DNA of 35,961 nucleotides, taken from Nemertoderma westbladi (taxonomy: Eukaryota; Animalia; Xenacoelomorpha). Within the stretch, counting starts at the first letter, position 1; each line of letters opens with the position of its first letter. Below are positions 8,245 to 35,326 of this stretch, piece after piece. Position numbers and translations under genes: made by a program. The DNA lies in contig JAUCBJ010001058.1 in NCBI GenBank assembly GCA_032718475.1, positions 1 through 35,961 of the forward strand, in the 5' to 3' direction. The notes beneath the pieces were generated by a model. That model did no database searches. It was not told where the DNA came from and saw only the letters and a list, made by a program, of their open reading frames with translations.

Positions 8245-9377
8245 CTGTTATCTTTGTTGACTTCTTCAAGGCCTTTGATTCAGTTTCTCGCTCACGTATG
8301 TTCAGCATACTTTCATTATATGGGATTCCTGATGAAATTATTGCAGACTGTTGACGGTGACACAGAACCATTTGAAGTGTTATGGGGCGTCCTCCAAGGA
8401 GACACACTTGCACCATTCTTGTTCATTATTGTGGTTGACTACGTTCTAGGCATGTCCTTAGATCATCATAATGATGATGGGGTAATGATAACTCCACCTA
8501 CTGGCTCCAGAAGTCGAGGAAATCCTGCCAAGTACCTAACTGATCTAGACTTTGCTGATGACTTAGGAGTACTCTCAGAATCATTAGAGGGAGCCCAACG
8601 GCTCCTCAGCTCATTAGAACATGCTGCTTCTAGTGTTGGTCTTTTTATTAACTCCAGAAAGACCAAAATTATGACAGTTAACTTTGAAAGTCCTCAGCAA
8701 GTCTCTGATCGGATGAGCATAAGCTCAAAGGATGGTATGCTTGAGCATGTGGACGACTTCTGTTACCTGGGATCATGGATCCGGAAGTCAGGTGAGGACC
8801 TTCGAATACGTAAGGGAAAGGCATGGGCAGCCTTGAATAGGCTTTCCAGGATTTGGAAGTCACCGAGAATTAATCGGAAACTTAAGGTCCGATTATTTAG
8901 AGCAGCAGTAGTTCCAGTACTCCTCTACGGGAGTCCATGCTGGGCTCTAACTGCTGAGGACACCAAATCTCTGGATGGCACATTCACAAGAATGCTACGC
9001 CGGGTTCATTGTGTCAAGTACAATGCACACATCTCCAACCAGACGCTATATAACATTGGAGGTGTCTCATTGGTTCCCCCAAGCTTGACACTAGAACAAA
9101 ATCGCCTCCGCTTTGCAGGACATTGCTTTCGCCGTGAGGACCAGCCAGTGCATAATCTTGTACTTTGGCAGCCTCATGGAGTGAATAAGCATGGTGGACA
9201 GCCCATGACTTTCTTGAGACGCATCTTAAAGGACACAGGCCTTAAAGATGCGGATGATCTAGCAAATGTCATGGGTGATAGGGAGTTGTGGCGGTGCAAT
9301 TTTGTTGACAAGCCGGCACAGCATTCCTAAAAATGCAGCTGCAATGCAGCATGCCGATCCTAGTAGTAGTAGTAGTA
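8245..9377 (+). mobile_element. 5'-truncated non-LTR retrotransposon, RTE-like, reverse transcriptase C-terminal part
   Basis: Motifs FVDFFKAFDSV (different frame, from about 8245), GVLQGDTLAPFLF, LDFADDL and FCYLGS. Stop at 9330, short 3' UTR, (TAG)n tail 9361-9377. Flanking direct repeat gtatagatcgg at 8234-8244 and 9378-9388. Confidence 0.93.
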
Positions 9378-10209
9378 GTATAGATCGGTGGAGAGAACGC
9401 TCATACCTGGTTCTGTATGAGGGTATAGATCGGTGGAGAGAACGCTCATACCTGGTAAAGTATGAGGGTATAGATCGGTGGAGAGACGCTCATACCTGGT
9501 AAAGTATGAGGGTATAGATCGGTGGAGAGACGCTCATACCTGGTAAAGTATGAGGGTATAGATCGGTGGAGAGACGCTCATACCTGGTTCTGTATGAGGG
9601 TATAGATCGGTGGAGAGACACTCATAGCTGGTAAAGTATGAGGGTATAGATCGGTGGAGAGACGCTCATACCTGGTAAAGTATGAGGGTATAGATCGGTG
9701 GAGAGACGCTCATACCTGGTAAAGTATGAGGGTATAGATCGGTGGAGAGACGCTCATACCTGGTTCTGTATGAGGGTATAGATCGGTGGAGAGAACGCTC
9801 ATACCTGGTAAAGTATGAGGGTATAGATCGGTGGAGAGACGCTCATACCTGGTAAAGTATGAGGGTATAGATCGGTGGAGAGACGCTCATACCTGGTAAA
9901 GTATGAGGGTATAGATCGGTGGAGAGACGCTCATACCTGGTAAAGTATGAGGGTATAGATCGGTGGAGAGACGCTCATACCTGGTTCTGTATGAGGGTAT
10001 AGATCGGTGCAGAGACGCTCATACCTGGTAAAGTATGAGGTTATAGATCGGTGGAGAGACGCTCATACCTGGTAAAGTATGAGGGTATAGATCGGTGGAG
10101 AGACGCTCATAGCTGGTAAAGTATGAGGGTATAGATCGGTGGAGAGACGCTAATACCTGGTAAAGTATGAGGGTATAGATCGGTGGAGAGACGCTCATAC
10201 CTGGTTCTG
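9378..10209. repeat. 44-bp minisatellite, proximal block (about 19 units), overlapping the exon 7 donor
   Basis: Same unit. The terminal copy runs into the last 9 exon bases (CAGAACCAG). Confidence 0.97.
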
Positions 10210-12909: not shown

Positions 12910-15900
12910 GGGCTCCATAACCTTTAGTGCTTGGTGAGTAAACGTATAGTATCTTACCCTGAGCATCTCCTGTGAGGGCTCCATAACCTTTAGTGCTTGG
13001 TGAGTAAACGTATAGTATCTTACCCTGAGCATCTCCTGTGAGGGCTCCATAACCTTTAGTGCTTGGTGAGTAAATGTATAGTATCTTACACTGAGCATCT
13101 CCTGTGAGTGTGAGGGCTCCATAACCTTTAGTGCTTGGTGAGTAAATGTATAGTATCTTACACTGAGCATCTCCTGTGAGTGTGAGGGCTCCATAACCTT
13201 TAGTGCTTGGTGAGTAAATGTATAGTATCTTACACTGAGCATCTACTGTGAGTGTGAGGGCTCCATAACCTTTAGTGCTTGGTGAGTAAATGTATAGTAT
13301 CTTACCCTGAGCATCTCCTGTGAGGGCTCCATAACCTTTAGTGCTTGGTGAGTAAATGTATAGTATCTTACACTGAGCATCTCCTGTGAGTGTGAGGGCT
13401 CCATAACCTTTAGTGCTTGGTTAGTAAATGTATAGTATCTTACCCTGAGCATCTCCTGTGAGGGCTCCATAACCTTTAGTGCTTGGTGAGTAAATGTAAA
13501 GTATCTTACACTGAGCATCTAACGTGAGGGCTCCATAACCGTTAGTGCTTGGTGAGTAAATGTATAGTATCTTACACTGAGCATCTCCTGTGAGGGCTCC
13601 ATAACCTTTAGTGCTTGGTGAGTAAATGTATAGTATCTTACCCTGAGCATCTCCTGTGAGGGCTCCATAACCTTTAGTGCTTGGTGAGTAAATGTAAAGT
13701 ATCTTACACTGAGCATCTCCTGTGAGGGCTCCATAACCTTTAGTGCTTGGTGAGTAAATGTATAGTATTTTACACTGAGCATCTCCTGTGAGGGCTCCAT
13801 AACCTTTAGTGCTTGGTGAGTAAATGTATAGTATCTTACCCTGAGCATCTCCTGTGAGGGCTCCATAACCTTTAGTGCTTGGTGAGTAAATGTATAGTAT
13901 CTTACCCTGAGCATCTCCTGTGAGGGCTCCATAACCTTTGTGCTTGGTTAGTAAATGTATAGTATCTTACCCTGAGCATCTCCTGTGAGGGCTCCATAAC
14001 CTTTAGTGCTTGGTGAGTAAATGTATAGTATCTTACCCTGAGCATCTCCTGTAAGGGCTCCATAACCTTTAGTGCTTGGTGAGTAAATGTATAGTATCTT
14101 ACCCTGAGCATCTCCTGTGAGTGTGAGGGCTCCATAACCTTTAGTGCTTGGTGAGTAAATGTATAGTATCTTACCCTGAACATCTCCTGTGAGGGCTCCA
14201 TAACCTTTAGTGCTTGGTGAGTAAATGTATAGTATATTACACTGAGCATCTCCTGTGAGGGCTCCATAACCTTTAGTGCTTGGTGAGTAAATGTATAGTA
14301 TCTTACCCTGAACATCTCCTGTGAGGGCTCCATAACCTTTAGTGCTTGGTGAGTAAATGTATAGTATCTTACACTGAGCATCTCCTGTGAGGGCTCCATA
14401 ACCTTTAGTGCTTGGTGAGTAAATGTATAGTATCTTACCCTGAGCATCTCCTGTGAGGGCTCCATAACCTTTAGTGCTTGGTGAGTAAATGTATAGTATC
14501 TTACCCTGAACATCTCCTGTGAGGGCTCCATAACCTTTAGTGCTTGGTGAGTAAATGTATAGTATCTTACACTGAGCATCTCCTGTGAGGGCTCCATAAC
14601 CTTTAGTGCTTGGTGAGTAAATGTATAGTATCTTACCCTGAGCATCTCCTGTGAGGGCTCCATAACCTTTAGTGCTTGGTGAGTAAATGTATAGTATCTT
14701 ACCCTGAGCATCTCCTGTGAGGGCTCCACAACCTTTAGTGCTTGGTGAGTAAATGTAAAGTATCTTACCCTGAGCATCTCCTGTGAGGGCTCCATAACCT
14801 TTAGTGCTTGGTGAGTAAATGTATAGCATCTTACCCTGAGCATCTCCTGTGAGTGTGAGGGCTCCATAATCTTTAGTGCTTGGTGAGTAAATGTATAGTA
14901 TCTTACACTGAACATCTCCTGTGAGGGCTCCATAACCATTAGTGCTTGGTGAGGAAATGTATAGTATCTTACCCTGAGCATCTCCTGTAAGGGCTCCATA
15001 ACCTTTAGTGCTTGGTGAGTAAATGTATAGTATCTTACACTGAACATCTCCTGTGAGGGCTCCATAACCTTTAGTGCTTGGTGAGTAAATGTATAGTATC
15101 TTACACTGAGCATCTCCTGTGAGGGCTCCATAACCTTTAGTGCTTGGTGAGTAAATGTATAGTATCTTACACTGAGCATCTCCTGTGAGGGCTCCATAAC
15201 CTTTAGTGTTTGGTGAGTAAATGTATAGTATCTTACACTGAGCATCTCCTGTGAGGGCTCCATAACCTTTAGTGTTTGGTGAGTAAATGTATAGTATCTT
15301 ACATTGAGCATCTCCTGTGAGGGCTCCATAACCTTTAGTGTTTGGTGAGTAAATGTATAGTATCTTACACTGAGCATCTCCTGTGAGTGTGAGGGCTCCA
15401 TAACCTTTAGTGCTTGGTGAGTAAATGTATAGTATCTTACACTGAGCATCTCCTGTGAGTGTGAGGGCTCCATAACCTTTAGTGCTTGGTGAGTAAATGT
15501 ATAGTATCTTACACTGAGCATCTCCTGTGAGGGCTCCATAACCTTTAGTGTTTGGTGAGTAAATGTATAGTATCTTACACTGAACATCTCCTGTGAGGGC
15601 TCCATAACCTTTAGTGCTTGGTGAGTAAATGTAAAGTATCTTACCCTGAGAATCTCCTGTGAGGGCTCCATAACCTTTAGTGTTTGGTGAGTAAATGTAT
15701 AGTATCTTACACTGAGCATCTCCTGTGAGGGCTCCATAACCTTTAGTGCTTGGTGAGTAAATGTATAGTATCTTACCCTGAGCATCTCCTGTGAGTGTGA
15801 GGGCTCCATAACCTTTAGTGCTTGGTGAGTAAATGTATAGTATCTTACACTGAGCATCTCCTGTGAGGGCTCCATAACCTTTAGTGCTTGGTGAGTAAAT

Positions 15901-18536
15901 GTATAGTATCTTACACTGAGCATCTCCTGTGAGGGCTCCATAACCTTTAGTGCTTGGTGAGTAAATGTATAGTATCTTACACTGAGCATCTCCTGTGAGG
16001 GCTCCATAACCTTTAGTGTTTGGTGAGTAAATGTATAGTATCTTACACTGAACATCTCCTGTGAGGGCTCCATAACCTTTAGTGCTTGGTGAGTAAATGT
16101 AAAGTATCTTACCCTGAGCATCTCCTGTGAGGGCTCCATAACCTTTAGTGCTTGGTGAGTAAATGTATAGTATCTTACACTGAGCATCTCCTGTGAGGGC
16201 TCCATAACCTTTAGTGCTTGGTGAGTAAATGTATAGTATCTTACCCTGAGCATCTCCTGTGAGTGTGAGGGCTCCATAACCTTTAGTGCTTGGTGAGTAA
16301 ATGTAAAGTATCTTACCCTGAGCATCTCCTGTGAGGGCTCCATAACCTTTAGTGTTTGGTGAGTAAATGTATAGTATCTTACCCTGAGCATCTCCTGCGA
16401 GGGCTCCATAACCTTTAGTGCTTGGTGAGTAAATGTATAGTATCTTACACTGAGCATCTCCTGTGAGGGCTCCATAACCTTTAGTGCTTGGTGAGTAAAT
16501 GTATAGTATCTTACCCTGAGCATCTCCTGTGAGTGTGAGGGCTCCATAATCTTTAGTGTTTGGTGAGTAAATGTATAGTATCTTACACTGAGCATCTCCT
16601 GTGAGGGCTCCATAACCTTTAGTGCTTGGTGAGTAAATGTATAGTATCTTACCCTGAGCATCTCCTGTGAGTGTGAGGGCTCCATAACCTTTAGTGCTTG
16701 GTGAGTAAATGTATAGTATCTTACCCTGAGCATCTCCTGTGAGGGCTCCATAAACTTTAGTGCTTGGTGAGTAAATGTATAGTATCTTACACTGAGCATC
16801 TCCTGTGAGGGCTCCATAACCTTTAGTGTTTGGTGAGTAAATGTATAGTATCTTACACTGAGCATCTCCTGTGAGGGCTCCATAACCTTTAGTGCTTGGT
16901 GAGTAAATGTATAGTATCTTACCCTGAGCATCTCCTGTGAGGGCTCCATAACCTTTAGTGCTTGGTGAGTAAATGTATAGTATCTTACCCTGAGCATCTC
17001 CTGCGAGGGCTCCATAACCTTTAGTGCTTGGTGAGTAAATGTATAGTATCTTACACTGAACATCTCCTGTGAGGGCTCCATAACCTTTAGTGCTTGGTGA
17101 GTAAATGTATAGTATCTTACACTGAGCATCTCCTGTGAGGGCTCCATAACCTTTAGTGCTTGATGAGTAAATGTATAGCATCTTACCCTGAGAATCTCCT
17201 GTGAGGGCTCCATAACCTTTAGTGCTTGGTGAGTAAATGTATAGTATCTTACACTGAACATCTCCTGTGAGGGCTCCATAACCTTTAGTGCTTGGTGAGT
17301 AAATGTATAGTATCTTACACTGAGCATCTCCTGTGAGGGCTCCATAACCTTTAGTGCTTGATGAGTAAATGTATAGCATCTTACCCTGAGAATCTCCTGT
17401 GAGGGCTCCATAACCTTTAGTGCTTGGTGAGTAAATGTATAGCATCTTACCCTGAGCATCTCCTGTGAGGGCTCCATAACATTTAGTGCTTGGTGAGTAA
17501 ATGTATAGCATCTTACCCTGAGCATCTCCTGTGAGGGCTCCATAACCCTTAGTGCTTGGTGAGTAAATGTATAGTATCTTACCCTGAGTATCTCCTGTGA
17601 GGGCTCCCTAACCTTTAGTGCTTGGTGAGTAAATGTATAGTATCTTACACTGAACATCTCCTGTGAGGGCTCCATAACCTTCAGTGCTTGGTGAGTAAAT
17701 GTATAGTATCTTACACTGAGCATCTCCTGTGAGGGCTCCATAACTTTTAGTGCTTGATGAGTAAATGTATAGCATCTGACCCTGAGCATCTCCTGTGAGG
17801 GCTCCATAACCTTTAGTGCTTGGTGAGTAAATGTATAGTATCTTACACTGAACATCTCCTGTGAGGGCTCCATAACCTTTAGTGCTTGGTGAGTAAATGT
17901 ATAGTATCTTACACTGAGCATCTCCTGTGAGGGCTCCATAACCTTTAGTGCTTGGTGAGTAAATGTATAGCATCTTACCCTGAGCATCTCCTGTGAGGGC
18001 TCCATAACCTTTAGTGCTTGGTGAGTAAATGTATAGTATCTTACCCTGAGCATCTCCTGTGAGGGCTCCATAACCTTTAGTGCTTGGTGAGTAAATGTAT
18101 AGTATCTTACACTGAACATCTCCTGTGAGGGCTCCATAACCTTTAGTGCTTGGTGAGTAAATGTATAGTATCTTACCCTGAGCATCTCCTGTGAGTGTGA
18201 GGGCTCCATAATCTTTAGTGCTTGGTGAGTAAATATATAGTATCTTACACTGAACATATCCTGTGAGGGCTCCATAACCTTTAGTGCTTGGTGAGTAAAT
18301 GTAAAGTATCTTACACTGAACATCTCCTGTGAGGGCTCCATAACCTTTAGTGCTTGGTGAGTAAATGTATAGTATCTTACACTGAGCATCTCCTGTGAGG
18401 GCTCCATAACCTTTATTGCTTGGTGAGTAAATGTATAGTATCTTACCCTGAGCATCTCCTGTGAGTGTGAGGGCTCCATAACCTTTAGTGCTTGGTGAGT
18501 AAATGTATAGTATCTTACCCTGAGCATCTCCTGTGA
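12910..18536. repeat. 66-bp minisatellite (about 84 units, with 72-bp variants), overlapping the exon 4 donor
   Basis: Unit gggctccataacctttagtgcttggtgagtaaatgtatagtatcttac(c/a)ctgagcatctcctgtga. On the minus strand this is 18 exon bases plus gtaaga plus 42 further intron bases. Confidence 0.98.
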
Positions 18537-19720: not shown

Positions 19721-21538
19721 ATTTCATTTCATTTCATTTCTTTTAATCAAATAAAATTGATATAACACAGATTATTGGGTCATAAAATATATGCAGTAAT
19801 TACACAAAAGCAACAATAAAATACGTAGCGCAACATAGATGAAATCAATGTGAACTTTACAAACTTTAAATAAAACAGTGTTCAGTTTGAAATAAAGGCT
19901 GTACATGTTATAAATTCATAGGTGTAGTCGTTCGTGATAATTGTACAACGTAATTAATATTCCGAAAGATGGTGTTCTAAGTGGTAAATCACAAAATACT
20001 ACAGCGGGTCCAAGGTCAGAGGTCAATCTCCCCGGCAACAGTCAGTTTAGAGGTCTCCATGGTCTAAGCGCAAGTACGCGACGTGCTTCCCACCTTTCCC
20101 TTGGATGTAATTAAGGTTACAGCCCGTAGGAGCTCCGGTAGATCCCGGTGAAATGCTCAGCAATGCCGAGATGAAATCAGTGAAATGCTATTAAGATCCC
20201 GTGCTGTGATGGTAACTCAGACGATATTGAAGTATTGAGTAATCCTATTGTGTTTGTCTTTGAATGATATGTTCTTGAGATTGTAACATTCCTCGATGTA
20301 CCTGGCATTAATGCATTCGATGGTTGTGAGGGTTCCCAATTTAATTCTCGCTTTCAGTTCTTTAACACCGTAGCTGTGTTGTAGAAGGGAACTTATACTT
20401 GGCATTGCTAACTCTAGATTGCAGCGGTTGTACAAACTGCCAATACCTACGTATCTCTTCATAGTGTCCATAGTGTTGATTTGCAGCATATTGCGAAGGT
20501 TGTACTGTAGATTTGGATTGGGACAGGATGTTAGTCGCCATACAATTCCGATACAGGATGTAAAGGCATCGAAAGCAAGTGGTTGGCACCCCATTAAACT
20601 GTATATCACCTGATTCGAAGCGTATGTTCCAAGATGGAGTAGGCCCCTTAGTGTTTTCCGGTAATAAATCTCAAGTTTCTCAATCTCGGTCTCTGTTAAG
20701 CGCCCTATCAGGAATTTTGCGTTGTATAGTATCATAGGGAGTGCAACAGACCTCCACAGGTGAGCGAGAGTAGTGGTATTGAGCCACCTAACAGTCCATG
20801 CGTTCCGGTGAAAAGATTCAGAGGCCATGGCGATTAGACGGATACACTCAGGGAGAGGATTGGGTCGCCAGAATTCTAGCTGTATCCAAGGAATAGTAGC
20901 ATAGATTGCCCTGGTATGAGTGTGTTCTTAATAGTGATGAAGGTAGGGATGCTGACGTTACTAACGTTGGTTTTACTGGGGACACAGTAAGTCCATTTAG
21001 TCTTACAACTCTCAATATCCCGATGTATATTCCGCAGATTGTCGATGATGATGGATAGGATTCTTTCGAGGTCCTCTGGATTTCTTGCCAGCACTAATAT
21101 GTCGTCGGCGTACGCAATAATATCCATCCAATTGCTCCCAGCTAGCTGTATGTTTATACCCAACAGAGTCCAGTCCAGTGCGTGAAAGACGTCACTCAGA
21201 TAAAAGTTGAATACGACTGGCGAGATGTTGGATCCTTGTTTGACACCCTTCAGTATAGGTATACCTGAGCAGCTGATCTCGTCACCAAATTTAAGAAACA
21301 CCAACGTTTTACTATAGTATCTAAGCAGTGAGAGGCACGTGTGAGGGTTGATGTAACGGCTTAATTTCTGGAATAAAATAAGATGATCCACGTTGTCGAA
21401 GGCCGACGCTATATCAACTTGACAGAGAAAAACGGGCAGACCACGCTGTCTTTGGAGTTCCAGACATTCCAGTAGGGAGGAGATTATGACGTCCCAACCA
21501 AACTTCTTCTGGTATGCAAGTTGAGATGGATGAGATAA
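19721..21538 (-). mobile_element. Decayed 5'-truncated non-LTR retrotransposon (clade not assigned)
   Basis: RT motifs HPSQLAYQK, QVDIASAFDNVDH, GVKQGSNISPVVFNFY, IAYADDI and FLGY. Stop/frameshift near 20876; C-terminal frame 20217-20828. Probable 3' end is attaaa followed by (GAAAT)4 at 19721-19740. No clear TSD, so the 3' boundary is inferred. Confidence 0.85.
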
Positions 21539-22594
21539 GTATGTTCAGCATTTATAATAAAAAATTGCACCAAAGTGAACAAAGTTAGCTAGCAAACAAT
21601 TGTATTATCTCATAATCTGATCCTAATAATTATTAAAGCAGTTAGGGCACCATCTCCTGTCTACATCAAAATTATATCTGATACCAAACACCACTCATAG
21701 TATTAATGTTGCCAAAACATAATTAAACCTCCAAACTCTGATTTTAATTGAACATTGCAACTATTAGTATAGTTTATTAATAGTACCCTACAGTTAGTTA
21801 ACAGTACATATATGGCGAGTCATCAGTGAACTTAGGTGTAGGTTTCAGTGTGTGTGTCAGAAGCCAATATCAGAATATATAACTAGCCATAGTATAATTA
21901 TAATTCTTCGCTGAGATGGGTTGCCGTTGCAGCTTCTGCTGCACAAAGGCCGCACTCGTGTACACTCTATAACTAAAAAGTCATTCAGGTGGCCAGCTTT
22001 TACCAGGACATTCGCATTCATTGAATCCACGGCAAGAGTTTGTGTTGGATTAACACAACCTATGGTTTGACAGATTAATATAATTAATGTTTGCCAACCA
22101 AGTCATTAACTCACCTCCCTCCCTCTCGGATTTTTAAATACATAAATTATTATTATTAGCTGAGTATTAGTGACCAACACTCATCAGAAGCATCCTATGT
22201 GTGTAACTAAAATTCATTCCACTGACCCACCATCTAACATGGCGCACGCAGTGAGTCAGTCACCTTGTAGATATTCCCTTAGGAAGCACTGGGGAGAGTT
22301 ATTCAGCTGATGGGATAATAGATTACAAACTAACCAAGTTAATGTTTGCTTATAGTCTGGGTTGAAAGAGTGAGTGATTAAATAAACACTTGGCACAGAA
22401 AGTACATCCTTGTTAGTTGGCCCTTTCTCTATAGAATAGAATCACTAAGCCCTCTCTATACATTTTTCATGTGCTCCAGCTGGTGTTTTATCATTGCGAC
22501 TATCACGTATTTTCTTTTATGTCTATTTTTCGAGCCCACATTCTATGGACAGACATGTGACCAGCGGGAGTCGATAGTGGTCCTCAAAACATTC

Positions 22595-23654
22595 TCAGTC
22601 AGTCAGTCAGTCAGTCAGTCAGTCAGTCAGTCAGTCAGTCAGTCAGTCAGTCAGTCAGTCAGTCAGTCAGTCAGTCAGTCAGTCAGTCAGTCAGTCAGTC
22701 AGTCAGTCAGTCAGTCAGTCAGTCAGTCAGTCAGTCAGTCAGTCAGTCAGTCAGTCAGTCAGTCAGTCAGTCAGTCAGTCAGTCAGTCAGTCAGTCAGTC
22801 AGTCAGTCAGTCAGTCAGTCAGTCAGTCAGTCAGTCAGTCAGTCAGTCAGTCAGTCAGTCAGTCAGTCAGTCAGTCAGTCAGTCAGTCAGTCAGTCAGTC
22901 AGTCAGTCAGTCAGTCAGTCAGTCAGTCAGTCAGTCAGTCAGTCAGTCAGTCAGTCAGTCAGTCAGTCAGTCAGTCAGTCAGTCAGTCAGTCAGTCAGTC
23001 AGTCAGTCAGTCAGTCAGTCAGTCAGTCAGTCAGTCAGTCAGTCAGTCAGTCAGTCAGTCAGTCAGTCAGTCAGTCAGTCAGTCAGTCAGTCAGTCAGTC
23101 AGTCAGTCAGTCAGTCAGTCAGTCAGTCAGTCAGTCAGTCAGTCAGTCAGTCAGTCAGTCAGTCAGTCAGTCAGTCAGTCAGTCAGTCAGTCAGTCAGTC
23201 AGTCAGTCAGTCAGTCAGTCAGTCAGTCAGTCAGTCAGTCAGTCAGTCAGTCAGTCAGTCAGTCAGTCAGTCAGTCAGTCAGTCAGTCAGTCAGTCAGTC
23301 AGTCAGTCAGTCAGTCAGTCAGTCAGTCAGTCAGTCAGTCAGTCAGTCAGTCAGTCAGTCAGTCAGTCAGTCAGTCAGTCAGTCAGTCAGTCAGTCAGTC
23401 AGTCAGTCAGTCAGTCAGTCAGTCAGTCAGTCAGTCAGTCAGTCAGTCAGTCAGTCAGTCAGTCAGTCAGTCAGTCAGTCAGTCAGTCAGTCAGTCAGTC
23501 AGTCAGTCAGTCAGTCAGTCAGTCAGTCAGTCAGTCAGTCAGTCAGTCAGTCAGTCAGTCAGTCAGTCAGTCAGTCAGTCAGTCAGTCAGTCAGTCAGTC
23601 AGTCAGTCAGTCAGTCAGTCAGTCAGTCAGTCAGTCAGTCAGTCAGTCAGTCAG
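22595..23654. repeat. (TCAG)n microsatellite, 1060 bp, 265 copies
   Basis: Uninterrupted tetranucleotide run as read. Confidence 0.99.
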
Positions 23655-24120: not shown

Positions 24121-24265
24121 CCCTTGTTTTGCTGCCAGTAATTAAACTGGCACTAATTTTATCGACCCCGCGTGATAAAAGGTTGAGTGGACCCTGGCGG
24201 GACTGAACCTACAACCAATAGAATGCAGGACCGGCGTTCAACCATCTGAGCTAGCTAGCCCCGGC
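24105..24265 (-). mobile_element. tRNA-derived SINE with a probable Meta/MESC-type central domain
   Basis: A box TAGCTCAGATGG (24242-24253) and B box GGTTCAGTCCC (24199-24209). These are followed by GGGTCCACTCAACCTTTTATC...GGGGTCGATAAAATTAGTGCCAG (24147-24194), which resembles, from memory, the conserved domain of MetaSINE/Sauria-type SINEs. Confidence 0.75.
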
Positions 24266-24299: not shown

Positions 24300-24489
24300 C
24301 TTATCGGAAAACTGTATGTTTTTGTTCCTTCATAGTCCAAACTGTTAGCATTAGCATATAGTTTACCGTTGTTTATGGTAAATGGCACACCAGGTGGCAA
24401 CGAGTCCCATGCTAATGTATTCCATGGGCTGGTTGTATCTTCATCAGTAACAAATGTTGTAAAGTCAAATATGGCCTTAGTAGCATCGC
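24300..24489 (-). CDS. Cadherin-repeat gene, exon 2 (GDATKAIFDFTTFVTDEDTTSPWNTLAWDSLPPGVPFTINNGKLYANANSLDYEGTKTYSFPIS)
   Basis: Acceptor ttttgtag| and donor AAG|gtaagt. 190 bp, phase 1 to 2. Carries the DxD (TDED) and LDYE cadherin motifs. Confidence 0.9.
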
Positions 24490-24587
24490 CTACAAAATGT
24501 GACAAAAATATTAAATAAATAAATTGGAGTTGAGCTGTGAAAGCAACTGTAATTAATGATGTAATATAATGGTTTTGTTCAGAAACG

Positions 24588-24695
24588 AAAAAAATTAGTA
24601 AGCACGTCACTGGGGGTTGAACCAGCGCTATACGTACGTTTCGGCCTATCAGGCCTCATCAGTAGCGCTAACCAGTTCAGCCACTTGCCCCTGAC
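24588..24695 (-). promoter_or_regulatory. Putative Pol III (type 2) transcription unit enclosing the hammerhead
   Basis: A-box-like TGGCTGAACTGG (24672-24683), B-box-like GGTTCAACCCC (24613-24623), T7 run at 24588-24594, and AT-rich TAAATATAA about 30 bp upstream. Confidence 0.55.
24618..24679 (-). ncRNA. Type I hammerhead ribozyme (minimal stem III)
   Basis: Minus strand reads AGCGCUA CUGAUGA GGCCU-GAU-AGGCC GAAA C-GUAC-G UA^ UAGCGCU. Complete core, 7-bp stem I extended by UGAAC/GUUCA, 5-bp stem II, 2-bp stem III with a palindromic GUAC loop. Predicted cleavage between 24631 and 24630. Confidence 0.88.
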
Positions 24696-24781
24696 ACTTA
24701 CTCTCCCACATAATCTACTTATATTTAACAGGGTAGTCTGTATTAAGTTACATATCCATCAGTAGTAAGATGAACCCCATT

Positions 24782-27700
24782 TGGTTTTAGTACCTTGAAC
24801 ATTGGTGGATCACACTTACCTGTTCTAGTACCTTAAACATTGGTGGATCACACTTACCTGGTTCTACTACCTTGAACATTGGTGGATCACACTTACCTGG
24901 TTCTACTACCTTGAACATTGGTGGATCACACTTACCTGGTTCTACTACCTTGAACATTGGTGGATAACACTTACCTGGTTTATAGTACCTTGAACATTGG
25001 TGGATCACACTTACCTGGTTGTAGTACCTTGAACATTGGTGGATCACACTTACATTTTTCTACCACCTTGAACATTGGTGGATCACACTTACCTGGTTTA
25101 TAGTACCTTGAACATTGGTGGATAACACTTACCTGGTTTATAGTACCTTGAACATTGGTGGATAACACTTACCTGGTTTATAGTACCTTGAACATTGGTG
25201 GATCACACTTACCTGGTTGTAGTACCTTGAACATTGGTGGATCACACTTACATTTTTCTACTACCTTGAACATTGGTGGATAACACTTACCTGGTTCTAG
25301 TACCTTGATCATTGGTGGATCTCACTTACCTGGTTCTAGTACCTTGATCATTGGTGGATCTCACTTACCTGGTTCTAGTACCTTGAACATTGGTGGATCT
25401 CACTTACCTGGTTCTAGTACCTTGAACATTGGTGGATCTCACTTACCTGGTTCTACTACCTTGAACATTGGTGGATCACACTTACCTGGTTCTAGTACCT
25501 TGAACATCGGTGGATCACACTTACCTGGTTCTAGTACCTTGAACATTGATGGATCACACTTACCTGGTTCTACTACCTTGAACATTGGTGGATCACACTT
25601 ACCTGGTTCTAGTACCTTGAACATTGGTGGATGACACTTACCTGGTTCTAGTACCTTGAACATTGGTGGATCACACTTACATTGTTCTAGTACCTTGAAC
25701 ATTGGTGGATCACACTTACCTGGTTGTAGTACCTTGAACATTGATGGATCACACTTACCTGGTTCTAGTACCTTGAACATTGGTGGATCACACTTACATT
25801 TTTCTACTACCTTGAACATTGGTGGATAACACTTACCTGGTTCTAGTACCTTGAACATTGGTGGATCACACTTACATTGTTCTAGTACCTTGAACATTGG
25901 TGGATGACACTTACCTGGTTCTATTACCTTAAACATTGGTGGATCACACTTACCTGGTTTATAGTACCTTGAACATTGGTGGATCACACTTACCTGGTTC
26001 TACTACCTTGAACATTGGTGGATCACACTTACCTGGTTCTACTACCTTGAACATTGGTGGATCACACTTACCTGGTTCTAGTACCTTGAACATTGGTGGA
26101 TGACACTTACCTGGTTCTAGTACCTTGAACATTGGTGGATCTCACTTACCTGGTTCTAGTACCTTGATCATTGGTGGATCTCACTTACCTGGTTCTAGTA
26201 CCTTGAACATTGGTGGATCTCACTTACCTGGTTCTAGTACCTTGAACATTGATGGATCACACTTACCTGGTTCTACTACCTTGAACATTGGTGGATCACA
26301 CTTACCTGGTTCTAGTACCTTGAACATTGGTGGATGACACTTACCTGGTTCTAGTACCTTAAACATTGGTGGATCACACTTACCTGGTTCTACTACCTTG
26401 AACATTGGTGGATCACACTTACCTGGTTCTACTACCTTGAACATTGGTGGATCACACTTACCTGGTTCTACTACCTTGAACATTGGTGGATAACACTTAC
26501 CTGGTTTATAGTACCTTGAACATTGGTGGATCACACTTACCTGGTTGTAGTACCTTGAACATTGGTGGATCACACTTACATTTTTCTTCTACCTTGAACA
26601 TTGATGGATCACACTTACCTGGTTCTAGTACCTTGAACATTGGTGGATCACACTTACCTGGTTCTACTACCTTGAACATTGGTGGATAACACTTACCTGG
26701 TTTATAGTACCTTGAACATTGGTGGATCACACTTACCTGGTTGTAGTACCTTGAACATTGGTGGATCACACTTACATTTTTCTACTACCTTGAACATTGG
26801 TGGATCACACTTACCTGGTTCTAGTACCTTGAACATTGGTGGATGACACTTACCTGGTTCTAGTACCTTGAACATTGGTGGATAACACTTACCTGGTTCT
26901 AGTACCTTGATCATTGGTGGATCTCACTTACCTGGTTCTAGTACCTTGATCATTGGTGGATCTCACTTACCTGGTTCTAGTACCTTGAACATTGGTGGAT
27001 CTCACTTACCTGGTTCTAGTACCTTGATCATTGGTGGATCTCACTTACCTGGTTCTAGTACCTTGATCATTGGTGGATCTCACTTACCTGGTTCTAGTAC
27101 CTTGAATATTGGTGGATCTCACTTACCTGGTTCTAGTACCTTGAACATTGATGGATCACACTTACCTGGTTCTACTACCTTGAACATTGGTGGATCACAC
27201 TTACCTGGTTCTAGTACCTTGAACATTGGTGGATGACACTTACCTGGTTCTAGTACCTTGAACATTGGTGGATCACACTTACCTGGTTCTATTACCTTGA
27301 TCATTGGTGGATCTCACTTACCTGGTTCTAGTACCTTGAACATTGGTGGATCACACTTACCTGGTTGTAGTACCTTGAACATTGGTGGATCACACTTACA
27401 TTTTTCTACTACCTTGAACATTGGTGGATAACACTTACCTGGTTCTAGTACCTTGATCATTGGTGGATCTCACTTACCTGGTTCTAGTACCTTGATCATT
27501 GGTGGATCTCACTTACCTGGTTCTAGTACCTTGAACATTGGTGGATCTCACTTACCTGGTTCTAGTACCTTGAACATTGATGGATCACACTTACCTGGTT
27601 CTACTACCTTGAACATTGGTGGATCACACTTACCTGGTTCTAGTACCTTGAACATTGGTGGATGACACTTACCTGGTTCTAGTACCTTGAACATTGGTGG

Positions 27701-30700
27701 ATCACACTTACATTGTTCTAGTACCTTGAACATTGATGGATGACACTTACCTGGTTCTAGTACCTTGAACATCGGTGGATGACACTTACCTGGTTCTAGT
27801 ACCTTGTACATTGGTGGATCACACTTACCTGGTTCTAGTACCTTGAACATTGGTGGATCTCACTTACCTGGTTCTAGTACCTTGAACATCGGTGGATGAC
27901 ACTTACCTGGTTCTATTACATTGAACATTGGTGGATCTCACTTACCTGGTTCTAGTACCTTGAACATTGGTGGATCACACTTACCTGGTTCTAGTACCTT
28001 GAACATTGGTGGATCTCACTTACCTCGTTCTAGTACCTTGAACATCGGTGGATGACACTTACCTGGTTCTAGTACCTTGAACATTGGTGGATCTCACTTA
28101 CCTGGTTCTAGTACCTTGAACATTGGTGGATCACACTTACATTGTTCTAGTACCTTGAACATTGGTGGATGACACTTACCTGGTTCTAGTACCTTGAACA
28201 TTGGTGGATCACACTTACATTGTTCTAGTACCTTGAACATTGGTGGATGACACTTACCTGGTTCTAGTACCTTGAACATTGGTGGATCTCACTTACCTGG
28301 TTGTAGTACCTTGAACATTGGTGGATCACACTTACCTGGTTCTACTACCTTGAACATTGGTGGATCACACTTACCTGGTTCTAGTACCTTGAACATTGGT
28401 GGATGACACTTACCTGGTTCTAGTACCTTGAACATTGGTGGATCACACTTACCTGGTTCTAGTACCTTGAGCATTGGTGGATCACACTTACCTGGTTCTA
28501 GTACCTTAAAGATTGGTGGATCACACTTACCTGGTTCTAGTACCTTAAACATTGATGGATCACACTTACCTGGTTCTATTACATTGAACATTGGTGGATC
28601 ACACTTACCTGGTTCTAGTACCTTGAACATTGGTGGATCACACTTACCTGGTTCTAGTACCTTAAACATTGGTGGATCACACTTACCTGGTTCTAGTACC
28701 TTGAACATTGATGGATCACACTTACCTGGTTCTAGTACTTTGAACATTGATGGATCACACTTACCTGGATCTAGTACCCTGAACATTGATGGATCACACT
28801 TACCTGGTTCTACTACCTTGAACATTGGTGGATCACACTTACCTGGTTCTAGTACCTTGAACATTGGTGGATCACACTTACCTGGTTCTACTACCTTGAA
28901 CATTGGTGGATCACACTTACCTGGTTCTAGTACTTTGAACATTGATGGATCACACTTACCTGGATCTAGTACCCTGAACATTGATGGATCACACTTACCT
29001 GGTTCTACTACCTTGAACATTGGTGGATCACACTTACCTGGTTCTAGTACCTTGAACATTGGTGGATCACACTTACCTGGTTCTAGTACCTTAAACATTG
29101 GTGGATCACACTTACCTGGTTCTACTACCTTGAACATTGGTGGATCACACTTACCTGGTTCTAGTACTTTGAACATTGATGGATCACACTTACCTGGATC
29201 TAGTACCCTGAACATTGATGGATCACACTTACCTGGTTCTATTACCTTGAACATTGGTGGATCACACTTACCTGGTTCTAGTACCTTGAACATTGGTGGA
29301 TCACACTTACCTGGTTCTAGTACCTTGAACATCGGTGGATCACACTTACCTGGTTCTAGTACCTTGAACATTGCTGGATCACACTTACCTGGTTCTACTA
29401 CCTTGAACATTGATGGATCACACTTACCTGGTTCTACTACCTTGAACATTGGTGGATCACACTTACCTGGTTCTAGTACCTTGAACATCGGTGGATCACA
29501 CTTACCTGGTTCTAGTACCTTGAACATTGGTGGATCATACTTACCTGGTTCTAGTACCTTAAATATTGGTGGATCACACTTACCTGGTTCTATTACCTTG
29601 AACATTGGTGGATCACACTTACTTGGTTCTACTACCTTGAACATTGGTGGATAACACTTACCTGGTTTATAGTACCTTGAACATTGGTGGATCACACTTA
29701 CCTGGTTGTAGTACCTTGAACATTGGTGGATCACACTTACATTTTTCTACTACCTTGAACATTGGTGGATCACACTTACCTGGTTCTAGTACCTTGAACA
29801 TTGGTGGATGACACTTACCTGGTTCTAGTACCTTGAACATTGGTGGATAACACTTACCTGGTTCTAGTACCTTGATCATTGGTGGATCTCACTTACCTGG
29901 TTCTAGTACCTTGATCATTGGTGGATCTCACTTACCTGGTTCTAGTACCTTGAACATTGGTGGATCTCACTTACCTGGTTCTAGTACCTTGATCATTGGT
30001 GGATCTCACTTACCTGGTTCTAGTACCTTGATCATTGGTGGATCTCACTTACCTGGTTCTAGTACCTTGAATATTGGTGGATCTCACTTACCTGGTTCTA
30101 GTACCTTGAACATTGATGGATCACACTTACCTGGTTCTACTACCTTGAACATTGGTGGATCACACTTACCTGGTTCTAGTACCTTGAACATTGGTGGATG
30201 ACACTTACCTGGTTCTAGTACCTTGAACATTGGTGGATCACACTTACCTGGTTCTATTACCTTGATCATTGGTGGATCTCACTTACCTGGTTCTAGTACC
30301 TTGAACATTGGTGGATCACACTTACCTGGTTGTAGTACCTTGAACATTGGTGGATCACACTTACATTTTTCTACTACCTTGAACATTGGTGGATAACACT
30401 TACCTGGTTCTAGTACCTTGATCATTGGTGGATCTCACTTACCTGGTTCTAGTACCTTGATCATTGGTGGATCTCACTTACCTGGTTCTAGTACCTTGAA
30501 CATTGGTGGATCTCACTTACCTGGTTCTAGTACCTTGAACATTGATGGATCACACTTACCTGGTTCTACTACCTTGAACATTGGTGGATCACACTTACCT
30601 GGTTCTAGTACCTTGAACATTGGTGGATGACACTTACCTGGTTCTAGTACCTTGAACATTGGTGGATCACACTTACATTGTTCTAGTACCTTGAACATTG

Positions 30701-33700
30701 ATGGATGACACTTACCTGGTTCTAGTACCTTGAACATCGGTGGATGACACTTACCTGGTTCTAGTACCTTGTACATTGGTGGATCACACTTACCTGGTTC
30801 TAGTACCTTGAACATTGGTGGATCTCACTTACCTGGTTCTAGTACCTTGAACATCGGTGGATGACACTTACCTGGTTCTAGTACCTTGAACATTGGTGGA
30901 TCACACTTACCTGGTTCTAGTACCTTGAACATTGGTGGATCTCACTTACCTCGTTCTAGTACCTTGAACATCGGTGGATGACACTTACCTGGTTCTAGTA
31001 CCTTGAACATTGGTGGATCTCACTTACCTGGTTCTAGTACCTTGAACATTGGTGGATCACACTTACATTGTTCTAGTACCTTGAACATTGGTGGATGACA
31101 CTTACCTGGTTCTAGTACCTTGAACATTGGTGGATCACACTTACATTGTTCTAGTACCTTGAACATTGGTGGATGACACTTACCTGGTTCTAGTACCTTG
31201 AACATTGGTGGATCTCACTTACCTGGTTGTAGTACCTTGAAAATTGGTGGATCACACTTACCTGGTTCTACTACCTTGAACATTGGTGGATCACACTTAC
31301 CTGGTTCTAGTACCTTGAACATTGGTGGATGACACTTACCTGGTTCTAGTACCTTGAACATTGGTGGATCACACTTACATGGTTCTAGTACCTTGAGCAT
31401 TGGTGGATCACACTTACCTGGTTCTAGTACCTTAAAGATTGGTGGATCACACTTACCTGGTTCTAGTACCTTAAACATTGATGGATCACACTTACCTGGT
31501 TCTATTACATTGAACATTGGTGGATCACACTTACCTGGTTCTAGTACCTTGAACATTGGTGGATCACACTTACCTGGTTCTACTACCTTGAACATTGGTG
31601 GATCACACTTACCTGGTTCTAGTACCTTGAACATCGGTGGATGACACTTACCTGGTTCTAGTACCTTGAACATTGGTGGATCTCACTTACCTGGTTCTAG
31701 TACCTTGAACATTGGTGGATCACACTTACATTGTTCTAGTACCTTGAACATTGGTGGATGACACTTACCTGGTTCTAGTACCTTGAACATTGGTGGATCA
31801 CACTTACCTGGTTCTATTACATTGAACATTGGTGGATGACACTTACCTGGTTCTAGTACCTTGAACATCGGTGGATGACACTTACCTGGTTCTAGTACCT
31901 TGAACATTGGTGGATCACACTTACCTGGTTCTAGTACCTTGAACATTGGTGGATCACACTTACCTGGTTCTAGTACCTTAAACATTGGTGGATCACACTT
32001 ACCTGGTTCTACTACCTTGAACATTGGTGGATCACACTTACCTGGTTCTAGTACTTTGAACATTGATGGATCACACTTACCTGGATCTAGTACCCTGAAC
32101 ATTGATGGATCACACTTACCTGGTTCTATTACCTTGAACATTGGTGGATCACACTTACCTGGTTCTAGTACCTTGAACATTGGTGGATCACACTTACCTG
32201 GTTCTAGTACCTTGAACATCGGTGGATCACACTTACCTGGTTCTAGTACCTTGAACATTGCTGGATCACACTTACCTGGTTCTACTACCTTGAACATTGA
32301 TGGATCACACTTACCTGGTTCTACTACCTTGAACATTGGTGGATCACACTTACCTGGTTCTAGTACCTTGAACATCGGTGGATCACACTTACCTGGTTCT
32401 AGTACCTTGAACATTGGTGGATCATACTTACCTGGTTCTAGTACCTTAAATATTGGTGGATCACACTTACCTGGTTCTATTACCTTGAACATTGGTGGAT
32501 CACACTTACTTGGTTCTACTACCTTGAACATTGGTGGATAACACTTACCTGGTTTATAGTACCTTGAACATTGGTGGATCACACTTACCTGGTTGTAGTA
32601 CCTTGAACATTGGTGGATCACACTTACATTTTTCTACTACCTTGAACATTGGTGGATCACACTTACCTGGTTCTAGTACCTTGAACATTGGTGGATGACA
32701 CTTACCTGGTTCTAGTACCTTGAACATTGGTGGATAACACTTACCTGGTTCTAGTACCTTGATCATTGGTGGATCTCACTTACCTGGTTCTAGTACCTTG
32801 ATCATTGGTGGATCTCACTTACCTGGTTCTAGTACCTTGAACATTGGTGGATCTCACTTACCTGGTTCTAGTACCTTGATCATTGGTGGATCTCACTTAC
32901 CTGGTTCTAGTACCTTGATCATTGGTGGATCTCACTTACCTGGTTCTAGTACCTTGAATATTGGTGGATCTCACTTACCTGGTTCTAGTACCTTGAACAT
33001 TGATGGATCACACTTACCTGGTTCTACTACCTTGAACATTGGTGGATCACACTTACCTGGTTCTAGTACCTTGAACATTGGTGGATGACACTTACCTGGT
33101 TCTAGTACCTTGAACATTGGTGGATCACACTTACCTGGTTCTATTACCTTGATCATTGGTGGATCTCACTTACCTGGTTCTAGTACCTTGAACATTGGTG
33201 GATCACACTTACCTGGTTGTAGTACCTTGAACATTGGTGGATCACACTTACATTTTTCTACTACCTTGAACATTGGTGGATAACACTTACCTGGTTCTAG
33301 TACCTTGATCATTGGTGGATCTCACTTACCTGGTTCTAGTACCTTGATCATTGGTGGATCTCACTTACCTGGTTCTAGTACCTTGAACATTGGTGGATCT
33401 CACTTACCTGGTTCTAGTACCTTGAACATTGATGGATCACACTTACCTGGTTCTACTACCTTGAACATTGGTGGATCACACTTACCTGGTTCTAGTACCT
33501 TGAACATTGGTGGATGACACTTACCTGGTTCTAGTACCTTGAACATTGGTGGATCACACTTACATTGTTCTAGTACCTTGAACATTGATGGATGACACTT
33601 ACCTGGTTCTAGTACCTTGAACATCGGTGGATGACACTTACCTGGTTCTAGTACCTTGAACATTGGTGGATCACACTTACCTGGTTCTAGTACCTTGAAC

Positions 33701-35326
33701 ATCGGTGGATGACACTTACCTGGTTCTAGTACCTTGAACATTGGTGGATCACACTTACCTGGTTCTAGTACCTTGAACATTGGTGGATCTCACTTACCTG
33801 GTTCTAGTACCTTGAACATCGGTGGATGACACTTACCTGGTTCTAGTACCTTGAACATTGGTGGATCACACTTACCTGGTTCTAGTACCTTGAACATTGG
33901 TGGATCTCACTTACCTCGTTCTAGTACCTTGAACATCGGTGGATGACACTTACCTGGTTCTAGTACCTTGAACATTGGTGGATCTCACTTACCTGGTTCT
34001 AGTACCTTGAACATTGGTGGATCACACTTACATTGTTCTAGTACCTTGAACATTGGTGGATGACACTTACCTGGTTCTAGTACCTTGAACATTGGTGGAT
34101 CACACTTACATTGTTCTAGTACCTTGAACATTGGTGGATGACACTTACCTGGTTCTAGTACCTTGAACATTGGTGGATCTCACTTACCTGGTTGTAGTAC
34201 CTTGAACATTGGTGGATCACACTTACCTGGTTCTACTACCTTGAACATTGGTGGATCACACTTACCTGGTTCTAGTACCTTGAACATTGGTGGATGACAC
34301 TTACCTGGTTCTAGTACCTTGAACATTGGTGGATCACACTTACATGGTTCTAGTACCTTGAGCATTGGTGGATCACACTTACCTGGTTCTAGTACCTTAA
34401 AGATTGGTGGATCACACTTACCTGGTTCTAGTACCTTAAACATTGATGGATCACACTTACCTGGTTCTATTACATTGAACATTGGTGGATCACACTTACC
34501 TGGTTCTAGTACCTTGAACATTGGTGGATCACACTTACCTGGTTCTAGTACCTTGAACATTGGTGGATCACACTTACCTGGTTCTAGTACCTTGAACATT
34601 GGTGGATCACACTTACCTGGTTCTAGTACCTTGAACATTGGTGGATGACACTTACCTGGTTCTAGTACCTTGAACATCGGTGGATGACACTTACCTGGTT
34701 CTAGTACCTTGAACATTGGTGGATCACACTTACCTGGTTCTAGTACCTTGAACATTGGTGGATCACACTTACCTGGTTCTAGTACCTTAAACATTGGTGG
34801 ATCACACTTACCTGGTTCTACTACCTTGAACATTGGTGGATCACACTTACCTGGTTCTAGTACTTTGAACATTGATGGATCACACTTACCTGGATCTAGT
34901 ACCCTGAACATTGATGGATCACACTTACCTGGTTCTATTACCTTGAACATTGGTGGATCACACTTACCTGGTTCTAGTACCTTGAACATTGGTGGATCAC
35001 ACTTACCTGGTTCTAGTACCTTGAACATCGGTGGATCACACTTACCTGGTTCTAGTACCTTGAACATTGCTGGATCACACTTACCTGGTTCTACTACCTT
35101 GAACATTGATGGATCACACTTACCTGGTTCTACTACCTTGAACATTGGTGGATCACACTTACCTGGTTCTAGTACCTTGAACATCGGTGGATCACACTTA
35201 CCTGGTTCTAGTACCTTGAACATTGGTGGATCATACTTACCTGGTTCTAGTACCTTAAATATTGGTGGATCACACTTACCTGGTTCTATTACCTTGAACA
35301 TTGGTGGATCACACTTACTTGGTTCT
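24782..35326. repeat. 39-bp minisatellite (about 270 units) with a 2.8-3.0 kb higher-order period
   Basis: Unit ggttctagtaccttgaacattggtggatcacacttacct. The minus strand carries AGAACCAG|GTAAGTG, identical to the exon 1 donor. Confidence 0.98.

Follow-up and report, generated by a model that had tools for sequence, protein, structure and literature searches.

A hammerhead ribozyme motif nested between A-box-like and B-box-like motifs in a young, abundant interspersed repeat of Nemertoderma westbladi

The window, a 35,961-nt stretch of genomic DNA from Nemertoderma westbladi (GenBank assembly GCA_032718475.1, contig JAUCBJ010001058.1, positions 1 to 35,961, forward strand), contains a cadherin-like gene on the minus strand. 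One exon of this gene, at 24300-24489, is bounded by AG at 24491-90 and GT at 24299-98 with an open frame between them, and a neighbouring exon gave a weak Cadherin Pfam match. The element studied here is located in the intron upstream of the 24300-24489 exon, on the sense strand and 15-25 nt before the 3' splice site. Its AT/T-rich 3' end (24490-24520, minus strand) abuts the splice-site AG at 24491-90 and appears to supply the pyrimidine tract.

At its other side, the element lies approximately 45 nt downstream of an 11-kb minisatellite with a 39-nt unit (24782-35326, minus strand). The 270 units of this array include 247 perfect occurrences of the 5' splice-site consensus CAGGTAAGT on the sense strand, compared with 0.5 expected, and the intron consists essentially of the array and the hammerhead element. 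Other intronic minisatellites of the same gene, at 219-8244, 9378-10205 and 12910-18536, also contained splice-donor-like sequence on the minus strand. A 44-nt minisatellite unit embeds the splice-donor-like CCAGGTATGAG (minus strand), and in a 66-nt array an apparent exon end and donor site are repeated, with open frames (...TGDAQGKILY...) of more than 1500 codons. Junctions of exon and 5' splice site appear to be the material from which the minisatellite arrays of the host gene are made. Introns of the gene also harbor two decayed reverse-transcriptase fragments of non-LTR type, at 8188-9330 (plus strand, E 2e-10) and 20217-21544 (minus strand, E 9e-22), both recognized by RVT_1 only, and a (TCAG)265 microsatellite with 100% matches occupies 22595-23654.

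Sequence reading and an Rfam alignment identified a complete type I hammerhead on the minus strand of the window. The core box CUGAUGA (C3-A9) is located at 24662-24656, as also found by a descriptor search, and is followed by the helix II hairpin GGCC-UGAUA-GGCC (24655-24643), in which 24655-52 pairs with 24646-43 in 4 bp around the loop UGAUA. The core GAAA (G12, A13, A14, A15.1) at 24642-24639 leads into a perfect palindrome, ACGUACGU (24639-24632), which in a monomer forms a helix III of two pairs, A24639-U24632 and C24638-G24633, closed by a GUAC loop, and in a dimer an 8-bp helix III. Helix I, of seven Watson-Crick pairs, is formed by its 5' strand at 24669-24663 (the UAGCGCUA region) and its 3' strand at 24630-24624, both strands being recovered in the Rfam alignment and in predicted folds, and has the open end of a type I hammerhead. 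Hammerhead numbering of the sequence and the Rfam alignment predicted cleavage at GUA/U, between A24631 (H17) and U24630. All conserved core positions were in place at 24662-24631 (C3 U4 G5 A6 N7 G8 A9, G12 A13 A14, A15.1-U16.1 and H17), which bears out the perfect CUGAUGA/GAAA/GUA core that an earlier note on this DNA had reported. The same note had cited the minimal type I hammerheads of Penelope-like elements and non-LTR retrozymes as background. The ribozyme is not of the minimal Penelope type: its 4-bp helix II, 2-bp helix III and 4-nt palindromic loop correspond to the canonical metazoan type I architecture, as characterized in excerpts of PMC4209133.

The note had proposed a search with the Rfam model Hammerhead_1 (RF00163). 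In 401 nt searched, this model matched end to end (model positions 1-45) at 24668-24625 with an E value of 2.2e-4; the score of 26.4 bits was below the Rfam gathering score of 34. Since the score falls under that threshold, an Rfam scan of the whole window at gathering level returned no matches. A descriptor that specified CUGANGA, a 4-bp helix II, a loop of 3-8 nt, GAAA, one to three more helix III pairs, UH and a 6-bp helix I found a single site in the window, the one at 24662-24631, and none in 40 Mb, on both strands, of first-order Markov-simulated sequence. Exact ribozyme patterns had no locus in metagenome contigs (two patterns), in viral contigs (one pattern) or in prokaryote genome contigs (one pattern).

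The hammerhead is flanked by motifs that resemble the internal promoter of tRNA genes. Sequence inspection and a motif scan placed an A-box-like motif, TGGCTGAACTGG, at 24683-24672 (minus strand), with a possible D-arm GCUG/UAGC around a GG-containing loop, and a B-box-like motif, GGTTCAACCCC, at 24623-24613 (minus strand), which is the sole match to GGTTCRANNCC in the window. The 48 nt between the two boxes are filled by the hammerhead, as the earlier note had stated. In the minus-strand reading of 24697-24588 a G-rich start precedes the A box, and approximately 18 nt separate the B box from a T7 run at 24594-24588 (minus strand), which the note had also observed and which is a possible Pol III terminator. 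With textbook consensus strings for the boxes, the motif scan found one A box followed by a B box 25-65 nt further on, at this site, where 0.003 were expected in the window, and one B box where 0.27 were expected. A chance origin of the hammerhead and the pair of boxes is excluded.

In spite of these boxes, tRNA-finding software did not accept the frame. ARAGORN found no tRNA either at default settings or with introns allowed, and Rfam gave no tRNA match on the unit at E values up to 10. When the ARAGORN threshold was lowered to 80%, two tRNA calls appeared and were rejected, as one lay on unrelated sequence and the other took the A-box region as an intron. A comparison by hand, based on the majority letters of the repeat family described below, showed an acceptor-like pairing, in which a 7-nt stretch upstream of the T-run pairs at six of its seven positions with sequence just upstream of the A box; A and T6 come next. 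The T-arm-like part is set off from this acceptor-like part by seven extra nucleotides, and the D-stem and helix I make competing claims on the same bases. The frame is classed here as tRNA-promoter-like and probably tRNA-derived, and not as a tRNA. When set against tRNA-derived SINEs, the repeat showed the order and tRNA-like spacing of the A and B boxes and a high-copy, interspersed distribution, and its head showed neither tRNA homology nor a cloverleaf. Such SINEs start about 10 nt before the A box, lack an internal terminator, and have an A-rich or LINE-derived tail and target duplications; in the present repeat, a family leader of at least 30 nt beyond 24696, a T6-7 run internal to the long form, an AT/T-rich tail and, as the sole flanking repeat, the 6-nt TATTAA were observed.

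A second tRNA-like SINE head was observed in the next intron of the host gene, at approximately 24185-24262 (minus strand; GGGGCTAGCTAGCTCAGATGG ... GGTTCAGTCCC), followed by a 36-nt array and the (TCAG)265 repeat. No Rfam tRNA was detected on it at E values up to 10. By eye only, its frame is similar to the one of the hammerhead unit; a MAFFT alignment of the two misaligned their B boxes.

Predicted folds were consistent with a ribozyme that acts between two molecules. The centroid fold of the 113-nt unit (z-score -1.02) retained helix I, helix II and an extension of helix I by pairing between the two box regions, and its ends closed further as GUGUCA/GGG with CCC/UGAC; the note's proposal that the boxes prolong stem I and that the ends close is thereby upheld at the level of predicted structure. 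For a 103-nt monomer, the hammerhead-compatible fold (-30.5 kcal/mol) lay 2.9 kcal/mol above the lowest-energy fold (-33.4 kcal/mol). Cofolding of two molecules yielded a double hammerhead that contained the 8-bp helix III, with an energy of -46.6 kcal/mol for the core dimer, compared with 2 x -17.8 kcal/mol, and of -75.6 kcal/mol for the dimer of the unit, compared with 2 x -33.4 kcal/mol. A longer stretch of 236 nt had a z-score of -0.72, and its AT-rich ends paired in the MFE fold.

The size and extent of the family to which this sequence belongs were estimated from the contigs of four public DNA runs (X1-X4; three studies, one organism), which were aligned to 24440-24790 at a likeness of at least 80%. 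In total 1297, 1936, 1112, and 97 contigs aligned in the respective runs, and 24505-24735 was matched at this level. Summed depth in the flank 24440-24499 was 8, 26, 37, and 0, a single-copy level. Across 24500-24739, summed contig depth was 5,500-450,000, with peaks of 450,714, 329,069, 148,532, and 6,150 in the four runs at 24620-24631, and it was 0 from 24740 onward. The corresponding depth ratios, of approximately 4,000 to 57,000, were rejected as copy numbers, as they disagreed more than 10-fold between runs and summed depth is not copy number; what is claimed for the size of the family is a minimum of roughly one thousand distinct contigs per run. Among the X1 contigs, 174 matched at 99% or more and a further 314 at 95-99% (488 of 1297 at 95% or more), and this abundance of near-identical contigs indicated that the family is young. 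The flanks at loose ends of family contigs were mutually unlike, as in an interspersed repeat, and no second copy of the unit was found within the window. These results agree with the SINE/retrozyme-type family that had been suggested as a frame for the sequence, in that it belongs to a very abundant interspersed repeat.

The depth steps placed this copy of the repeat at approximately 24505-24740 (minus strand), with its 5' end at about 24735-24740 and its 3' end at about 24505-24515. The unit of roughly 105 nt that the earlier note had delimited is therefore only the core: family members extend beyond the T-run as far as about 24505-24524 and, on the other side, beyond 24696. The repeat unit is approximately 230 nt long, and the box-to-T-run stretch is its conserved core, not the whole mobile unit. 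Within it, the B box-ribozyme-A box region (24608-24679) was 3-4 times deeper than the remaining unit. The 3' part, which ends AT/T-rich on the element's strand, occupies 24505-24587 (minus strand), and X1 depth was approximately 100,000 over 24524-24607. Contigs that continued left of 24589 with a common sequence numbered 71 of 919 in X1, 64 of 734 in X3, and 6 of 58 in X4 (agreement 0.68-0.88). Since these family members extend past the T-run, the run is internal to the major, long form of the repeat.

At the 5' side, a 30-nt leader to the right of 24696 was common to 23 of 919 contigs in X1 and 18 of 734 in X3 (agreement 0.76-0.78); in this copy the leader (24696-24740, minus strand) has diverged from that of the family, as judged from the contig continuations. 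Inspection by hand of the family leader revealed a second, imperfect A-box-like motif, TGGATTAGGTGG (minus strand). A smaller set of contigs, 12 of 1297 in X1 and 16 of 1112 in X3, ended their match at the T-run with unrelated AT-rich continuations (agreement 0.52-0.54), which hints at a short form of the family with its end at the expected stop of Pol III. In the family majority, position 24588 is G (A>G, 95% of X1 depth), which reduces T7 to T6; the majority also differs from this copy at 24586, 24596, 24599, 24604, and 24611. A weak candidate for a target duplication is TATTAA at 24509-14 and 24741-46, an AT-rich 6-nt repeat for which chance suffices.

Among the joints listed between copies, none was a high-depth head-to-tail joint; there were single-contig, low-depth joints of the "goes back" kind and one junction from 24708 to 24546 with a depth of 54. 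Six of the 15 joints listed linked opposite strands, each represented by one contig per run, and two of these recurred in X1-X3. Among the best-supported rows listed, the cleavage site showed no excess of loose ends, which indicates that cleavage does not define the ends of the copies.

Sequence variation within the family was expressed as shares weighted by k-mer depth, listed at a 2% threshold for 24619-24660 and at a 10% threshold for the whole unit. The most variable ribozyme positions were 24649 in loop II (50% in X1 and 47% in X3) and 24643, where a change of C11.1 to U that retains a G.U pair reached 39% and 32%, respectively. Lower shares were found in loop III, at 24635 (5% and 2.6%) and 24637 (1% and 2%), and at 24658, that is U7 at the one free core position N7 (1.9% and 1.7%; 36 and 37 contigs). 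Other changes listed in CUGAUGA did not exceed 0.2% in X1 and X3, those listed at G5, A9, G12, and A14 amounted to 0.04-0.8% in these runs, and the remaining core positions were absent from the listing. A change of G12 to A at 24642 had a share of 0.5-0.8%, although this position lies in one CpG with 24643. This CpG serves as an internal control: its two transitions were approximately 50-fold apart, in the direction predicted from hammerhead function, where a change at 11.1 is tolerated and one of G12 to A is lethal.

Variation in the boxes was similarly confined. Only 24676 in the A box varied at 10% or more, by an A to G change on the RNA strand (34-55%) at tRNA position 15 that keeps the purine consensus of the box. 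No variant in the B box reached 10%, and those at 24619 and 24623 remained at or below 0.2% in X1 and X3. Variation thus falls at positions that are permissive in a hammerhead (loop II, pair 11.1, loop III, and N7) and spares the catalytic core and the boxes. The depth-weighted shares are nevertheless weak evidence of selection, as consensus k-mers and subfamily founder events dominate them; the common variants may be single subfamily founders, and polymorphic sites were no less dense in the core (5-6 in 84 nt) than they were in the 3' part (5 in 95 nt).

The reading preferred here, which is given an even chance, is that of a young and very abundant retroposon of SINE/retrozyme-like kind, in which the boxes serve the source copies as a Pol III promoter and a dimer-dependent hammerhead is retained. 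In such a cycle, RNA polymerase III and TFIIIC would transcribe the source copies from the A and B boxes, and the T6-7 run would act as a terminator that leaks. Pairing of two transcripts through the ACGUACGU palindrome would lead to cleavage after A24631 and leave 2',3'-cyclic phosphate and 5'-OH ends. The predicted cut would thus fall between the A and the B box, as the earlier note had anticipated. The RNA would be copied by a reverse transcriptase acting in trans, from a Penelope-like element or a LINE, a route already suggested for Sm-alpha and animal retrozymes. The copy in the window would be a passenger in the intron of the cadherin-like gene, and a single copy would rarely cut.

That even confidence is drawn from the anatomy of the hammerhead, its non-chance origin, the size of the family, the distribution of variants and the CpG control, the boxes, the dimer fold, the tRNA-gene-like 3' end and the precedent of Sm-alpha. 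Several observations weigh against a Pol III-transcribed retroposon. An internal T6 run and a leader of at least 45 nt before the A box are both atypical of Pol III elements, and, since the family unit extends beyond the putative Pol III transcript at either end, the template for copying was not simply an RNA that runs from the boxes to the T-run. Neither ARAGORN nor Rfam recognized a tRNA, and the tail is T/AT-rich on the element's strand rather than A-rich. To these are added the lack of a loose-end excess at the cleavage site, the Rfam score below gathering level, a lowest-energy monomer fold that is not a hammerhead, and the limited value of the variant shares as evidence of selection.

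The extension of the unit beyond the A box and the T-run would be accommodated by an alternative that is considered somewhat unlikely, namely a retrozyme-type element in which the boxes are a relic of a tRNA-derived ancestor or part of a long helix I structure. Such an element would be transcribed by read-through from host genes or by another polymerase, and the hammerhead would cut longer transcripts into units to be circularized by a tRNA ligase. The mutual complementarity of the box regions, which extends helix I, fits this alternative, as do the canonical metazoan architecture that the ribozyme shares with retrozymes (parts of PMC4209133 and PMC7229834) and the suggestion, in an excerpt of PMC7761336, that read-through by any polymerase may yield the transcripts of animal retrozymes. 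It accounts less well for the boxes themselves, since structure alone would not need full-consensus boxes at tRNA spacing with a T-run behind them; moreover, the copy in the window is single and no high-depth head-to-tail joint occurs among those listed.

A more far-reaching proposal, judged unlikely, takes the nesting of the two signals literally: a promoter that acts in DNA and a ribozyme that acts in RNA would be interleaved in a natural Pol III gene, and the hammerhead would have originated within a tRNA-derived SINE, in its anticodon arm. The anticodon stem would then have its counterpart in helix I, with CUGAUGA as an anticodon-loop-like heptamer, while the rest of the ribozyme would resemble an intron at the canonical position 37/38. 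A tRNA-like transcript of this kind would split itself into two halves that are held together by the paired box regions, and its 2',3'-cyclic phosphate and 5'-OH ends would be those that are joined by the tRNA-splicing ligase.

Given that hammerheads are universal in Penelope pseudo-LTRs and that thousands of solitary motifs are dispersed in animal genomes (according to parts of PMC4209133), the sequence might also stem from a Penelope-like element, as a fragment or as a non-autonomous derivative, with a ribozyme end that is recognized by the Penelope reverse transcriptase and with boxes that are incidental. This origin appears distinctly unlikely. The six opposite-strand joints, two of them in three runs, recall inverted partial Penelope copies; each is seen in one contig per run, however, and nesting of abundant repeats could explain them. 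Two length classes of the 3' end may recall the optional tail of Penelope elements that is mentioned in an excerpt of PMC11167929, but depth peaks in the middle of the unit and does not rise towards one end. The 4-bp helix II and the real 2-bp helix III with its 4-nt loop are not the minimal design described in the same parts of PMC4209133, and no Penelope ORF was found nearby, the two reverse-transcriptase fragments (matches at 8188-9330 and 20876-21544) being RVT_1 only and more than 3 kb away.

A hairpin DNA transposon (MITE) with tRNA-like and hammerhead-like sequence by happenstance and no role at the RNA level is very improbable: the unit does fold as a long imperfect hairpin, the AT-rich ends of the 236-nt stretch pair with one another in the MFE fold, and mobility at the DNA level would account for repeat sequence outside the putative transcript, but both fold z-scores are unremarkable, the complementary ends are AT sequence of low complexity, the complete core is not a product of chance, variation obeys hammerhead rules, and the sole flanking direct repeat is the AT-rich hexamer that chance explains.

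Animal genomes contain thousands to hundreds of thousands of hammerheads, for which the polymerase involved and the purpose of the cut are standing questions. A young and abundant family with a ribozyme inside a full-consensus tRNA-type promoter, followed by a T-run, offers a concrete case in which Pol III dependence, cutting by monomers and dimers, and the fate of the halves can be tested. It also suggests a route by which a hammerhead element could grow from a tRNA-derived SINE. If promoter and ribozyme were indeed interleaved in one gene, the family would be the first example of a ribozyme SINE with source genes that have a defined promoter of their own, and might form an evolutionary link between tRNA genes and the hammerhead retroelements of animals. 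If the boxes are relics, it would be one more dispersed hammerhead repeat, of an ordinary kind.

Among known systems, the non-LTR retrozymes of metazoans (coral, mussel, and axolotl) share with this repeat a canonical type I hammerhead and a very high copy number (Cervera and de la Pena 2020; excerpts of PMC7229834). The same excerpts describe their non-coding units as 170-400 nt long, with a weak helix III that makes cleavage dimer-dependent, and report tandem repeats and abundant circular RNAs. Transcription of animal retrozymes is possibly by read-through of any polymerase, with no conserved motif pointing to a machinery in the part of PMC7761336 concerned. In contrast, the copy described here is solitary, without the head-to-tail tandem arrangement of retrozymes in the window, its family looks mainly dispersed in the DNA runs, and it has explicit Pol III boxes.

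The ribozyme itself conforms to the canonical metazoan type I, which has a helix III of 1-2 bp and a small palindromic loop and acts in tandem or as a dimer (Cervera and de la Pena 2014; parts of PMC4209133). It resembles the hammerheads of Penelope-like elements in being of type I, in its predicted action as a dimer and in the thousands of dispersed solitary copies that such motifs have in animal genomes (same source). The minimal Penelope hammerheads lack helix III, combine a short helix I with a longer helix II, and lie in pseudo-LTRs beside an RT/GIY-YIG ORF (same source, in part); the ribozyme in the window differs from them in its 2-bp helix III with a 4-nt loop, its 4-bp helix II and the absence of an adjacent Penelope ORF. 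The combination of an internal DNA promoter and a self-cleaving RNA in one short stretch is known from Pr77/L1TcRz of the Trypanosoma cruzi element L1Tc, which differs in having an HDV-like ribozyme and another type of promoter and in its position at the 5' end of an autonomous LINE (excerpts of PMC3383444).

No description of a hammerhead nested between A and B boxes was found in full-text literature searches; the layout is absent from the portions available of PMC6765202, PMC2770079, PMC7761336, PMC7229834, PMC11167929, PMC4209133, and bioRxiv 10.64898/2026.07.22.740005. The system that appears nearest, judged by the layout descriptions given in reviews, is Sm-alpha, in which a promoter with a tRNA-derived head is followed by a hammerhead, and for which transcription by Pol III and copying via RNA have been proposed (parts of PMC6765202 and PMC2770079). 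In Sm-alpha the ribozyme comes after the promoter (PMC6765202, in part), whereas here the order is A box, ribozyme in the place of the anticodon arm, and B box; likewise, the tRNA part of Sm-alpha is called as tRNA-Gln by tRNAscan-SE (PMC2770079, in part), whereas no tRNA finder accepts the present frame. With Sm-alpha and Sj-alpha of Schistosoma the repeat nevertheless shares its main traits, as described in the excerpts of these two papers: a short, non-coding, high-copy repeat that combines A and B boxes with a canonical type I hammerhead and a weak helix III.
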